Shown here piece by piece: positions 24,001-27,000 of a stretch of DNA of 64,000 bases (position 1 is the stretch's first letter; the number at the start of each line of letters is the position of its first letter). Source of the DNA: Treponemataceae bacterium (GTDB lineage Bacteria; Spirochaetota; Spirochaetia; Treponematales; Rectinemataceae); the NCBI GenBank assembly GCA_963677895.2, contig CAXXGJ010000038.1, forward strand, positions 448,001 to 512,000, read 5' to 3'. A program made the position numbers.

Positions 24001-27000
24001 GGCCAGTCCCCGCCAGATTTCGCTGTTGGATGATTCCTCGGCGAAGGTCAGGGCGCGGGCGGCCACTTTCGTGGCGAGTCTTTCCTTCTTGGTGGTGAGG
24101 ATGCTGGCCACTGCCGGCACGCTGACCTTCTTGAGCTGCTTTCCCGACAGTTTTTTTATGCGGAACAGCATGCGGTACTCGTCGGGGGTGACGAAGGTTA
24201 TAGCCGTGCCCGAGTTGCCGGCCCTGCCCGTCCTGCCCACCCTGTGGAGATAGGAATCGGGATCATGGGGAAGGGACCAGTTGATGACATGGGTGAGTTT
24301 TTCGATATCGAGTCCGCGGGCGGCGACGTCGGTGGCGACGAGTATGGACAGTCTCTTGTCCCTAAACTTGCCCAGCACTCTTTCGCGGGCGTCCTGGCTG
24401 AGGTCGCCATGGAGTCCTTCGGCGTCATAGCCTCGCTCGGCGAGAGAGCTGGCGAGCCTGTCGGCCTCGACCTTCGTCGCGACGAAGACTATGCCGAAAA
24501 AGTCCTCGGTGCTGTCCACGATGCGGCAGAGCGCCTCGAGCCTGTCCCTCGAATGCACTTCGATCCAGAGCTGCTCCGCGAGCTGCGTCGGCAAGGTGTC
24601 GGTCTCGTCTTCCAGGATCTCGATGTCGCCGGTTCTTTCCCTCACGATATCGAGAACGGCCGGAGCCAGCGTCGCGGAGAACAGAAGCATCCTCACGTCG
24701 GTGTTCATCGTCTCCATGACGGCCCGGATATCGTCGATGAAGCCCATGTCGAGCATTTCGTCGGCTTCGTCGAGAATGAAGAATTTCAGGTGTGATACGT
24801 CGAGGCTGCCCCGTCCGATGTGGTCGAGCACTCTTCCGGGCGTGCCCACGACGATATCGACTCCCTGGGCAAGTCTGCGCAGCTGTTCCCCGATGGAGGC
24901 GCCGCCGTACACGCAGGCGAGCCTGGGCTTAGCGCCGTGCTTTAATGAGGAAATCTCCTCGGTCACCTGCAATGCCAGTTCGCGGGTGGGAACCAGGATG
25001 AGGGCTGAGGCGGGGGTTCTTCCGATCGGGCCATCGGTGCCGATGGTCTCTATGAGGGGAATTCCGAAAGCGGCCGTTTTACCGGTACCGGTGCGAGCGC
25101 GGGCCGCGATGGCCGGGCCGGGTACCAAAAGCCTTGGAATGGCGAGAGCCTGGATAGGTGTCGGCTCTTCAAACCCTTTTTTTGCCAGGGTTTCCAGCAT
25201 TGCGGGCGATAGCCCGAGTGATTCAAATGTCATTGTACAGAATTATATGCGAAAAAAGTAAATCTATTCTAGTACTTGCAAAAAATTAGCTCTTCTGAGA
25301 CAACAAAAATCGTCCAAGATCCTCCTGGCTATTGATGCTGCAGAAAAGCCGCCAATCCGGGGAAAAACCCCTCGCGATATCTTCGGGCACGATATAGTGC
25401 GGAGCCTCCTTTATAAGCCTCGCGAAGGAAAAATGTCCGGGAGAGCCGGGACTCTCGGCGAAAATATCTTCCAGCCGCCCGAGCAGCTTGCGGGAATAGA
25501 GCCCCTGAAAAGGCTCGATGTGGCGGCCGGATTGGGCGACGACCGCCTGCGGGATTCCGGTTCCGGCGCAGCCGAGGAGATAGCTCAGCCATTCGCGGCT
25601 AAAAACAGGCATATCGCAGGCCATGAGATAGAGCCATTCGGTTCCGGAACGGGACAGGGCCGCATGCAGCCCCGAAAGCGGGCCGAATCCGGGGATGAGG
25701 TCCTCGGCGAAAGCGACGGGCAGGCCTTCATAAGGCTTTCTTTTCCTTCCGATGACCGTCACCGCCCGGCCCGTCGCGAGCGCGTTCCTTGCCACCAGCC
25801 TTCCCATGGCTTCGCCGTTGAGCGGGATCTCCTGTTTGTCGATTCCGCCGAAACGGCTGCTTTTCCCTCCAGCCAGAATCGCAATGGTCACCGTCTCAAC
25901 CGCCGTCTCGGCCACCTTCCCTGCCTCCGAAAAATAACGCTTGCGCCGCGCATTGACCGCGGCTACATTGTCCATAATGCTTGTCGAACTGCTCGGCGCC
26001 GCCGATTGGACGACTCCCCCGCCCGAGATGGAGTTTTCCGCGACCTATGAAGTCCTGCTGCGCGATGTCGCCGAAACCGTCCAGGAGCTTAAAGCCCTGG
26101 AGGGATGGCCTTCCTCTCCTTCCTCCCCGAAATGGCTCGAGGCTCCCGGACTGGCGGTTTTTCTCTATGTCAGGGCGCCCGCCATTGTCAATGTCATGCT
26201 CAACTACAAAATCTGCGTCGAACACGATTTGCCCTTGCATCCAACCCTCTACTACGAACTGAAGGAAGCCAGGAAGTACAGGATCGATTACGACATCGCG
26301 GCCATCGACGAGGCCAATCGGCTATACCGCCGGTCTATAGACCTGGCGAGAGCCGCCCTCCGGCTCGACGCGAGCTTCGGGGAACAGATGGCCTCGTTTC
26401 ACGAGTCTCTGCCCTCGAATCTTCGCGGCTTCGTCTATACGGGCATCAGGGACGCCTACACATGGCGGGGCTCCGACCCCGGACTTCTCGTCCGGCTCGC
26501 CAAAAACATCGAGGAGGAATTCAAGCCCGATATCATCGTCGCCGCCGCCCATGGCTCCATCATGCCGGCCCTGCTCCTCTCGGAACTCATGGAAATACCA
26601 CTCTATTTCATTCGCTTCTCCATGTTCAAGCGCAATGACGAGGAACCGATCCTCACTTTTTCCGATCAGGCATGGCTTTTGGGATTCAAGAGCAAAAAAG
26701 CGCTTCTCTATGACGAAGATGTAGCCGGCGGCAGAACCTTGACCCTGTTCTCGGAACGAATGGCCTCCCTGTTCTCGCAAACCAGGACAGCCTGTTCCAT
26801 TCGCCATGCCGGCGCGACGATAAAACCGGATTTCTGCGCGAAAATCTGGTGGGACTGATAGACGGAAAAGCATACGTAAATCGAAAAAATCGCGTATAAG
26901 ACCGCTATTCTATATCATTATATTGATATATATTATATTAGTAAATCACGCTTGTGTTTTCGCTTGACTTTTATCGATAGATAGTTATCATAAATTTACC

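Follow-up and report, generated by a model that had tools for sequence, protein, structure and literature searches.

A riboswitch-preceded importer operon and the proposed salvage of the molybdenum/tungsten pterin cofactor in spirochaetes of the family Rectinemataceae

Riboswitch-controlled vitamin salvage is known from the cobalamin system BtuFCD, which is under a B12 riboswitch, and from the thiamine system ThiBPQ, which is under a TPP riboswitch. The Mo/W pterin cofactor, on the other hand, has long been regarded as too labile to exit the cell that produces it, and free Moco is very labile. A table of riboswitch-regulated coenzyme transporters has no uptake category for Moco in the part of that article consulted (PMC3766115), and full-text searches of open-access papers and bioRxiv found no account of a bacterium that takes up, salvages, requires or cross-feeds Moco. 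Uptake of ready-made Moco is not known from any bacterium.

It has been demonstrated that Caenorhabditis elegans gets dietary, mature Moco from bacteria (Warnhoff and Ruvkun, PMC9793310). This animal has its own synthesis, and the route of transport is described as not known in the sections consulted of that work. Molybdoenzymes without the pathway are also already in print as 'orphan molybdoprotein-containing organisms' (Peng, Xu and Zhang 2018, PMC6147048), which hold molybdoenzyme homologues while their Moco pathway is incomplete and a Mo transporter is frequently missing. In the sections consulted of that study, genome incompleteness is left open, unknown components or Mo-independent enzymes are proposed rather than salvage, and the orphan pattern is not linked to riboswitches or to a transporter.

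The system proposed here for an anaerobic spirochaete would share with vitamin salvage the cofactor-dependent enzymes, the retained late tailoring steps and a binding-protein-dependent importer that the finished cofactor turns OFF through a riboswitch, and with C. elegans the use of mature, metal-loaded Moco of bacterial make in its own enzymes. It would differ from the former in that the cofactor is the Mo/W pterin cofactor, that the binding protein is MalE-like and that the operon encodes an extra three-domain lipoprotein of pterin-binding fold, and from the latter in that the organism is a bacterium without synthesis and with a candidate transporter. We consider it fairly probable that the genus of this spirochaete and at least five neighbouring genera cannot make molybdopterin and import the finished, metal-loaded cofactor for their W/Mo enzymes.

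Pterin enzymes, late genes and the synthesis operon

The window analysed is a stretch of 64,000 nucleotides from a Treponemataceae bacterium, whose genome (G000) is a metagenome bin that is 92.8% complete, with 5.5% contamination, in 39 contigs; all the genomes compared with it are also metagenome bins. Computation covered which genes are present or missing, how the operons are built, how far the riboswitch is conserved, the protein fold, selection and a predicted protein contact. The features are collected in Table 1. One of them, a MobA-like gene, is encoded within the window; all other parts of the cofactor system lie outside it.

Table 1. Location of the features discussed in the text (G000 is the genome of the window; C numbers are its contigs)
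Feature	Location	Positions	Strand	Basis or remark
MobA-like molybdenum cofactor guanylyltransferase gene	Window	25286-25975	minus	PF12804 and MobA alignment
Importer operon and riboswitch	G000, C2	62771-67730	minus	Pfam, RF01055, predicted structures
RF01055 riboswitch	G000, C2	67585-67730		56.2 bits; first in importer operon
RF01055 riboswitch	G000, C18	174615-174752		
RF01055 riboswitch	G000, C37	2972-3109		
MocA-like gene	G000, C14	12463-13134		TIGR03310 at 3e-24, under cut-off
Mo/W-pterin enzyme genes	G000, C38, C18, C6, C22			

The genome-wide survey's note had placed a MobA gene at 25286..25915. The open reading frame there is MobA-like: it matches PF12804 NTP_transf_3 at 1.8e-30 (106.7 bits, cut-off 27), and the E. 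coli MobA structures 1fr9 and 1e5k align with it at 3e-11. The start is corrected, since 25915 corresponds to an internal Met and the frame extends to 25975. A residue-by-residue alignment to 1fr9 revealed that the stretches LAGGK..R.GG.DK, GPL.G and CD.P are kept, and we take the LAGG...R.GG.DK loop and CD.P to be functional motifs of MobA. Fold and nucleotide-binding motifs are thus common to both proteins, although the sequence similarity is low: the top NCBIfam matches are MobA models (1e-21), all of them under their cut-offs, and the curated equivalog cut-offs are not reached either by TIGR02665 (77.5 vs 151.85 bits) or by NF001457 (73.5 vs 164). The gene is intact in the two other genomes of the genus, G001 (92% identity) and G002 (71%). 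We regard the MobA-like step as a late tailoring step retained despite the loss of the synthesis operon; unlike E. coli MobA, this protein would work on imported rather than self-made cofactor.

Profile searches of G000 yielded three AFOR_N matches, five MoCoBD_1 matches corresponding to xanthine-dehydrogenase (XDH)-family genes and one Molybdopterin (PF00384) match corresponding to a DMSO-reductase-family gene, and none of these genes contains internal stops. The ten Mo/W-pterin enzymes reported earlier are therefore nine, the 'sulfite-oxidase-like lipoprotein' being a gene of the importer operon under the riboswitch. The reported late genes are present: MobB passes TIGR00176, FdhD is found, and the MobA- and MocA-like genes match under cut-off. 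Moreover, an XdhC-type AOR maturation factor passes NF045664.

No match to MoaC, PF00994, PF06463 (MoaA) or MoaE was obtained in profile searches of G000, searches whose controls gave matches in 11/14, 13/14, 11/14 and 11/14 genomes, respectively. When G000 was searched by tblastn with the proteins of a relative holding the pathway (G019), MoeA, MoaC and MOSC gave no match at E<=1 and the best match of MoaB had an E of 0.98, with otherwise only generic ABC and radical-SAM similarity to the operon proteins. Two weak matches to MoaA (4e-6, radical-SAM core) were considered as a divergent MoaA and rejected: MoaA models are far under cut-off for both, one is TrsS, which passes NF045646, and the other is a SPASM radical-SAM protein. 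The absence of MoaA, MoaC and MogA/MoeA/MoaB from G000, as claimed in the survey, is consequently upheld. The same four families have no matches in G001 (97% complete, 8 contigs) or G002, which nonetheless show six and four AFOR matches; MoaE apart, this repeats what had been reported for the genus. The synthesis cluster described for G014 was likewise recovered, with MoaC, PF00994 and PF06463 matches inside 3 kb.

MoaE represents a different case. It is indeed not found in G000, but it was also detected in none of the 22 sampled family genomes, including those with moaA, moaC, moeA and moaB, so that its absence from G000 carries no information. As the rest of the pathway is present in 14 of those 22 genomes, at least one pathway step must be invisible to profiles, which weakens arguments from absence.

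No tungstate- or molybdate-binding protein (TupA, ModA) was found among the SBP_bac_11 and PBP_like_2 matches examined in G000. Five of the seven SBP_bac_11 matches were scanned, the two left out being C2:227313-228320 and C2:106528-107625, and these five turned out to be three PhnS2-like proteins, ThiB and PotD; the single PBP_like_2 match is PstS. The TupA model matches G019, but none of G001, G002, G005 and G021. In relatives (G019, G013, G082), the genes lacking here lie side by side in a single operon, tupABC-moeA-moaA-moaC-MOSC-moaB, and its loss removes metal transport and metal insertion along with the pterin pathway. The MOSC gene of this operon is a candidate for the MPT synthase that profiles miss in the family.

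The importer operon, its riboswitch and their distribution

The operon on C2 encodes, in this order, an SBP_bac_8/MalE-like binding protein, a lipoprotein with a PF00174 match and a permease with a double BPD_transp_1 match. The binding protein (SBP_bac_8, 5.7e-21; target-normalised TM-score of the model against Thermotoga maritima MalE, 0.83) is MalE-like and not of the ModA, TupA or WtpA type. The permease, with 589 aa, is a fusion of a MalF-like and a MalG-like stretch. No ATPase gene is found within the operon; many ABC ATPases are encoded elsewhere in G000, and ATPase sharing is known for this MalEFG-like class of transporters. The three-gene order is kept in 10/10 loci of relatives, in one of which the permease is cut by the contig end.

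In the lipoprotein (495 aa), the PF00174 (Oxidored_molyb) match covers only profile positions 56-167 of 169, and the predicted structure (pLDDT 83.7) consists of three domains of the sulfite-oxidase/PruR-type pterin-binding fold. PruR, a periplasmic protein with one domain only, relays its signal to a c-di-GMP enzyme. This small domain of sulfite-oxidase fold binds pterin without catalysis (7kom, 7kos, 7kp2, 7rkb), and each lipoprotein domain is predicted to resemble it (target-normalised TM-score 0.61-0.72); in contrast to PruR, three such domains occur here, in a lipoprotein encoded by a transporter operon that has a cofactor riboswitch. The model also matches the Moco domains of sulfite oxidase and sulfite dehydrogenase, YedY, and PruR pterin-binding proteins, the neopterin complex 7rkb among them. 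Residues C370 and H371 are invariant in 30/30 sequences. The predicted fold fits SUOX enzymes and the non-catalytic PruR alike, and the lipoprotein is not classed here as a sulfite-oxidase-family enzyme.

A complex of the binding protein and the lipoprotein was predicted in three runs with an ipSAE of 0.73, a mark reached by 116/157 solved complexes and 2/215 mismatched pairs; the best control scored 0.00. At least 76% of the contacts recur between the runs, and the pLDDT of the partner is at least 83. This prediction lends support to a contact between both proteins without demonstrating it. The N-terminal beta-rich domain of the binding protein (residues ~33-135, model pLDDT 81.4) was compared with the lipoprotein domains, and no homology was shown (hhalign probability 3.9%).

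A run labelled metatranscriptomic gave eight contig pieces, 90-97% identical, that cover parts of all three importer genes; the piece on the lipoprotein gene has 1566 nt in one case. The RNA nature of the run is a guess, and the pieces are not counted as evidence of expression.

The three Moco riboswitches of the survey were found at the places it named, the two copies besides that of C2 scoring 39.4 and 36.4 bits against a gathering threshold of 36 (model positions 1-135). The C2 copy sits directly 5' of the binding-protein gene, with an SD-like AAGGGGG and an AUG inside the 3' strand of the aptamer. Aligned to the model, the C2 and C18 copies have lost the P3 columns, whereas the copy that precedes tupA in G013 keeps P3. 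Judged by its sequence, the C2 riboswitch is a member of the P3-less 'tungsten cofactor' (Tuco) class. According to the sections consulted of Regulski 2008 (PMC2408646), this class is tied to the use of the tungsten cofactor, and its RNAs adjoin genes for MPT biosynthesis and for Tuco-using enzymes. The importer riboswitch is kept at 11/12 loci examined, the contig of the twelfth stopping within the binding-protein gene.

The lipoprotein occurs in 18/69 family genomes and in 0/24 sampled genomes of the other families of the order, and its closest database homologues carry the label Rectinemataceae. PF00994 is absent in 15/18 carriers versus 15/51 non-carriers, counts that are not phylogenetically independent. 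Three carriers (G019, G066, G082) also have the synthesis operon, and the importer is therefore no simple replacement for synthesis. When AFOR-bearing pairs differing in the synthesis operon were drawn from an RpoB tree (which leaves out G003, G005, G015 and G030, with no RpoB match), the importer differed in the opposite way in 3/3 independent pairs, too few for significance (sign test, p = 0.25). G003 (96% complete, 280 contigs) has AFOR, and neither synthesis genes nor importer were found in it. Among the 15 genomes without synthesis operon and importer, it is the only one with a strong AFOR match at E<=1e-60, a threshold that is too strict for the family, as it misses AFORs at 1e-52 to 1e-54. 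MoaC is found in 22/36 sampled family genomes, which corrects an earlier count of 23. The putative auxotrophy that had been presented as a genus trait does extend to all three genomes of the genus, but it is not confined there, since six genera of the family show it.

Competing explanations

The first alternative, which we regard as unlikely, is that enzymes with no relation to MoaA, MoaC, MoeA and MoaB still make the cofactor de novo, and that the riboswitch-controlled ABC system imports tungstate or molybdate, replacing TupABC. The case of MoaE indicates that unrecognised cofactor enzymes exist in the family, and a new route of metal uptake would be welcome after the loss of tupABC with the operon. 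The one P3-less RNA at a transporter, a predicted molybdate transporter of Pelobacter carbinolicus, is an apparent exception in the sections consulted of Regulski 2008 (PMC2408646), and 'new Moco biosynthetic components' have been put forward for orphan molybdoproteins in those of Peng 2018 (PMC6147048). However, three or four new unrelated enzymes would be needed for cPMP synthesis and for sulfur and metal insertion, just where the operon was lost, and the radical-SAM proteins weakly similar to MoaA have other identities. Furthermore, the MalE-like type of the binding protein and the predicted fold of the accessory lipoprotein, which is pterin-binding and not oxyanion-binding, argue against the import of an oxyanion.

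A second possibility, rather improbable in our view, is that salvage is real but that the imported compound is only a precursor or lacks parts of the cofactor, as would be the case for metal-free molybdopterin, for cPMP or for some other pterin; the metal would then be acquired and inserted by some other route. cPMP is the most stable intermediate of the pathway, which counts for this explanation. Among small proteins, PruR comes structurally closest to the lipoprotein domains, and its ligands are simple pterins such as neopterin (7rkb); the unrecognised MPT synthase of the family might persist in the genus and could convert cPMP. Nevertheless, MoeA, MogA/MoaB and TupA/ModA were not found in any of the three genomes of the genus, which leaves no provision for metal supply or for metal insertion. 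In addition, the response of the E. coli riboswitch requires molybdate and the full pathway according to the sections consulted of Regulski 2008 (PMC2408646), suggesting that the effector is the metal-loaded cofactor, and G000 keeps three such switches.

It is very improbable that the pterin enzymes are inactive relics or cofactor-independent proteins and that nothing is imported. Such a reading has been published for Methanosphaera, which keeps the pterin enzyme Fmd without molybdopterin synthesis and in which, in the sections consulted, the enzyme is interpreted as inactive (PMC10658910), and Mo-independent forms are named as a possibility in the consulted part of Peng 2018 (PMC6147048). Against it, purifying selection within the genus acts on the genes for AFOR, MobA and the importer (dN/dS 0.10-0.22): between G000 and G002, two AFORs have dN/dS values of 0.10 and 0.16 and MobA one of 0.22 (dS 0.80), compared to 0.03 for RpoB and 1.1-4.5 for antisense frames. 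In synthesis-lacking genomes from several genera, AFOR genes number 1-6 and XDH-family genes 3-5 per genome, free of stops, and the XDH-family genes are intact in 5/5 such genomes examined; cofactor-specific maturation genes and the cofactor riboswitches are retained as well.

That the synthesis operon exists and was missed by assembly or binning is scarcely credible: all the genomes are bins, that of the window is incomplete, and gaps of this kind do occur, as shown by G031 and G032, where MoaC was missed despite PF00994, but the operon is absent from the three genomes of the genus, one of them in only 8 contigs, and from genus g20 (all eight genomes) and genus g4 (both genomes), while 39/69 family genomes of similar quality show it (PF00994).

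Proposed cofactor route and its meaning

The scavenging of ready-made cofactor appears the most likely explanation because the enzymes and the late genes are kept, synthesis is lost and a cofactor riboswitch precedes the importer. The salvage reading of the survey is thus supported, although not proven, by the loss of a whole operon, by the Tuco-class riboswitch together with the importer of predicted pterin-binding fold, and by purifying selection. What is imported, that it is handed over and in which direction the riboswitch acts are inferred from these features; the imported substrate could be something else related to the cofactor.

In the proposed scheme, a single lost operon would have provided for tungstate transport, for making cPMP and for inserting the metal. 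The outward-facing lipoprotein, with its three predicted pterin-binding domains, would capture the cofactor and pass it to the MalE-like binding protein, and the fused MalF/G-type permease, driven by an ATPase encoded elsewhere, would import it. Once inside, MobA, MobB, MocA-like transferases, the XdhC-type factor and FdhD would tailor and insert the cofactor. When the cofactor is plentiful, the P3-less riboswitch would hide the ribosome-binding site and the start codon of the importer.

This claim is directly testable by ordinary binding and complementation experiments. If true, it would give the Mo/W pterin cofactor its first candidates for a membrane transporter and an extracellular carrier, and it would bear on how Moco crosses membranes, a question of the C. 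elegans work and of attempts at cofactor therapy. It would also offer an explanation for 'orphan' molybdoenzymes in hundreds of genomes, and metabolic models that infer inactivity from an absent pathway would be wrong for these organisms. On a broader view, for which we see the chances as evenly balanced, the Mo/W pterin cofactor would be an exchanged good in anoxic communities: these spirochaete lineages would have abandoned its synthesis and would live on the cofactor of neighbours or dead cells by means of the triple-domain lipoprotein and the riboswitch-controlled ABC importer, the first bacterial Moco/Wco transporter, and an NAD-dependent aldehyde dehydrogenase, the target of another of the riboswitches, would act as a cofactor-free stand-in when the supply fails. 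Moco/Wco would then join B12, thiamine and haem among the cofactors traded by microbes.

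Enzymes and tailoring genes retained without a synthesis operon

The genome-wide survey's note proposed that this genome (3.51 Mb in 39 contigs, 92.76% complete, 5.46% contamination) encodes many enzymes dependent on the molybdenum/tungsten pterin cofactor (Moco/Wco), and profile searches bear this out, with three AFOR_N (aldehyde:ferredoxin oxidoreductase, AFOR), five MoCoBD_1 and one DMSO-reductase-family matches. None of these nine genes contains an internal stop, and most of them sit on large contigs (C38, C18, and C6). The window corresponds to C38:448001-512000. Eight of the nine products (all except a 1691-aa protein from C6) were scanned against NCBIfam, which returned xanthine dehydrogenase (XDH)-like proteins, a Mo/Fe-S subunit passing TIGR03313, a DMSO/S-N-oxide-reductase-family protein, and two proteins matching AFOR; the third AFOR had no NCBIfam match at 1e-20.

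The late tailoring genes named in the same note are also found: MobB passes TIGR00176, FdhD is present, and both MobA and a MocA-like gene on C14 match under the cut-offs. The MobA gene itself stands, but the start assigned to it (position 25915) is an internal Met in the same frame of a longer ORF. The top NCBIfam matches of this ORF are all MobA models (~1e-21), yet under their curated cut-offs, and its alignment with E. coli MobA structures (3e-11) conserves the stretches LAGGK..R.GG.DK, GPL.G, and CD.P. The two remaining genomes of the genus keep intact copies (92% and 71% identity); against one of them, G002, dN/dS is 0.22 at a dS of 0.80. None of its neighbors has a link to cofactor metabolism (they are a DEAD-box helicase, a formiminotransferase-cyclodeaminase, a Rex-like regulator, a methyltransferase, an Rrf2 regulator, and a weak phosphoribosyltransferase-like ORF); in the family genomes G019 and G022, coordinates show that MobA adjoins an AFOR gene. 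NCBIfam gives no match for the divergent 305-aa ORF that overlaps the 5' end of MobA, and its only other match, to a phosphoribosyltransferase, barely clears the threshold (27.3 bits; cut-off 26.3).

In addition, contig C35 holds a maturation cluster that encodes a C_GCAxxG_C_C protein, a TrsS radical-SAM protein (passing NF045646), an AMP-binding enzyme, an XdhC-family aldehyde-oxidoreductase maturation factor (passing NF045664), a histidine phosphatase, an NTP-transferase, and an HD domain. The N- and C-terminal halves of the NTP-transferase occupy two different frames (5174-5425 and 5415-5642) upstream of the HD domain, a split that may be a frameshift.

Features discussed in the text (G000, the genome under study; G013, G019, and G082, other genomes of the family; C, contigs; L, DNA pieces with their own coordinates)
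Feature	Location	Strand	Remarks
MobA-like nucleotidyltransferase	window 25286-25975	minus	PF12804, 1.8e-30
305-aa ORF	window 25941-26858	plus	
Polyamine-type ABC system	window 17308-21295	minus	PotD-like spermidine/putrescine binding protein, permease, ATPase
Aldehyde-oxidoreductase maturation cluster, molybdopterin-dependent type	G000:C35:550-6293 (L054)		profile matches
Moco riboswitch (RF01055), strongest copy	G000:C2:67585-67730	minus	56 bits; directly upstream of the three-gene importer operon
Importer gene 1	G000:C2		511-aa MalE-like binding protein; SBP_bac_8, 5.7e-21
Importer gene 2	G000:C2:64548-66035		495-aa lipoprotein; partial PF00174 match, 1e-11
Importer gene 3	G000:C2		589-aa fused MalF/MalG-like permease
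Riboswitch and dehydrogenase gene	G000:C18:172953-174752		562-aa product passes TIGR01236
Riboswitch and dehydrogenase gene	G000:C37:2972-4771		562-aa product passes TIGR01236
Dehydrogenase homologue	L022:4657-6407 (G019)		52% identity
Synthesis operon	L020:9332-15220 (G019)		
Synthesis operon	L021:7717-13403 (G013)		
moaB with one in-frame TAG	L104:8640-9098 (G082:C120)		

The note's claim that MoaA, MoaC, MoaE, and MogA/MoeA/MoaB are missing holds insofar as profile searches of the genome gave no match to MoaC, PF00994, PF06463, or MoaE, which were found in 11, 13, 11, and 11 of 14 control genomes, respectively. It does not hold for MoaE as evidence. MoaE (PF02391) is found in none of the 22 sampled family genomes, 14 of which carry moeA, moaA, moaC, and moaB, and its absence here is therefore uninformative. 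This shows that the family has a cofactor step (MPT synthase) invisible to profile searches, which is the main caveat for arguments from absence.

As a second test beyond Pfam, the pathway proteins of G019 (99% complete, five contigs) were compared with the genome by tblastn. In G019, the synthesis genes form one operon, tupA-tupB-tupC-moeA-moaA-moaC-MOSC-moaB, and a MOSC-domain gene between moaC and moaB is found in the synthesis operons of the family; G013 and G082 also carry the operon with a P3-containing riboswitch upstream. No match at E≤1 was obtained for MoeA, MoaC, or MOSC, and the best matches of MoaB and TupA had E values of 0.98 and 0.01. MoaA matched only the radical-SAM core of two proteins, which were identified as TrsS and a SPASM-domain protein and score far under the cut-off of MoaA models. 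Among the six of eight SBP_bac_11 and PBP_like_2 matches scanned, no tungstate/molybdate binding protein was found; they were PhnS2-like, ThiB, PotD, and PstS. The PotD-like protein of the window, one of the SBP_bac_11 matches, belongs to an ordinary polyamine-type system and was rejected as ModA. The TupA model finds the G019 gene and has no match in G001 and G002 (the other two genomes of the genus), G005, or G021. Since the tup-moe-moa-MOSC genes form one operon in relatives and are absent from the genus, one transcription unit has been lost, which had supplied metal, pterin, and metal insertion together.

The riboswitch-led operon and its predicted proteins

Three RF01055 matches were found exactly where the survey had placed them. 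The operon behind the C2 copy contains no ATPase gene. An SD-like AAGGGGG and the AUG of its first gene lie within the 3' strand of the aptamer, an arrangement like that of the start region in the E. coli moaA element (PMC2408646), which by analogy suggests that ligand binding turns importer translation off. The P3 stem is absent from the C2 and C18 copies, and the P3-less variant has been described as tracking tungsten-cofactor use (Regulski et al. 2008, PMC2408646).

The lipoprotein, folded with a 30-sequence alignment (pLDDT 83.7), reads in this model as a lipobox followed by three modules with a pterin-binding fold. In the PDB, Foldseek matched it to Moco domains of sulfite oxidase/dehydrogenase, to YedY, and to four PruR pterin-binding proteins, of which one is neopterin-bound (target-normalised TM-scores of 0.61-0.72 for PruR). 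Residues C370 and H371 are invariant in all 30 sequences and might provide the bound cofactor with a metal ligand. The stretch to which they belong (Q-S-C-V-S-C-H, residues 365-371) resembles a haem c CxxCH site, and its first cysteine is a glycine in about a third of the 30 homologues. The binding-protein model (pLDDT 81.4) is MalE-like (target-normalised TM-score 0.83), is also similar to a dinucleotide-binding ABC protein, and carries an additional N-terminal beta-rich domain. The predicted complex of both proteins reached an ipSAE of 0.73 in all three runs, against 0.00 for the best control. Among solved complexes 116 of 157 score this high, and among mismatched pairs 2 of 215; these counts are only roughly valid here as the complex was predicted from custom alignments. 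At least 76% of contacts were common to the three runs, with partner pLDDT of at least 83. The modeling supports a putative contact between the binding protein and the lipoprotein.

The C18 and C37 riboswitches precede near-identical genes for an NAD-type L-glutamate gamma-semialdehyde dehydrogenase (TIGR01236), whose G019 homologue also lies behind a riboswitch and adjoins the importer operon. C37 (10,390 bases) is a near-duplicate of C18:168800-176700 with near-identical proteins and the same gene order (histidine kinase, riboswitch, dehydrogenase, TRAP-type transporter genes, GntR-like regulator). Either the bin mixes strains here or the region was duplicated recently.

Distribution and selection

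The lipoprotein family comprises at least 152 database clusters; those named are all labelled spirochaetes, the closest being Rectinemataceae. It is present in 18 of 69 family genomes, and PF00994 is lacking in 15 of these 18 carriers versus 15 of the 51 non-carriers. The three-gene order is kept at 10/10 relatives' loci (one permease is cut by a contig end), and 11 of the 12 loci examined show the riboswitch; the contig of the remaining one stops within the binding-protein gene. In a tree built on RpoB (33 family genomes, four outgroups), carriers of the importer without synthesis genes occupy three places: the clade of genera g1/g4/g19/g20, G022, and G023. G036, a congener of G022, has synthesis and no importer. 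Among AFOR-bearing genomes, three independent pairs differ in the synthesis operon, and the importer differs oppositely in all three, although three pairs are too few for significance (p = 0.25).

Some genomes count against a salvage reading: G019, G066, and G082 carry both importer and synthesis operon, and G003 has AFOR with neither seen. In G082, which holds the importer with its riboswitch and the complete tup-moe-moa operon, the in-frame TAG in moaB could mark the onset of decay or stem from a sequencing error. G031 and G032 are not further exceptions, as their PF00994 matches indicate that the missing MoaC is an assembly gap.

Against G002, two AFORs have dN/dS values of 0.10 and 0.16, the three importer genes lie at 0.12-0.15, and RpoB at 0.03, versus 1.1-4.5 for antisense-frame controls. 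XDH-family genes are intact in all five synthesis-lacking genomes tested, with three to five matches each.

Probable salvage of ready-made cofactor

The genome-wide observation of the survey, that enzymes and late genes are kept and synthesis is absent, is thus confirmed. Several hundred organisms with orphan molybdoproteins have been reported, for which unknown biosynthetic components or metal-independent enzymes were proposed (Peng et al. 2018, PMC6147048), and a pterin enzyme retained without the pathway in Methanosphaera has been read as inactive (PMC10658910). For the genome studied here, salvage of ready-made cofactor is, on balance, probably the best explanation. As the metal transporter and insertase were lost along with the pterin pathway, the imported cofactor would already have to be metal-loaded.

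In the proposed mechanism, the lipoprotein would catch the metal-loaded cofactor outside the cell and pass it to the MalE-like protein, the fused permease would bring it into the cell, and MobA, MobB, MocA, XdhC, and FdhD would then tailor and insert it. The riboswitch would shut the importer once the cofactor pool is full. When cofactor is scarce, the riboswitch-controlled NAD-type aldehyde dehydrogenase, which would not need it, may conceivably take over from tungsten-dependent aldehyde oxidation.

Riboswitch-regulated uptake systems have been listed for B12, thiamine, riboflavin, queuosine, and folate, with none given for Moco in that account (PMC3766115); uptake of exogenous Moco outside C. 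elegans has been described as neither examined nor observed (PMC9793310), and our search of the full-text literature (open-access papers and bioRxiv) found no report of it in bacteria. The plan would be that of the known riboswitch-controlled cofactor-salvage strategy; what would be new is the cofactor and the accessory protein. The salvage reading is of high interest because it is directly testable.
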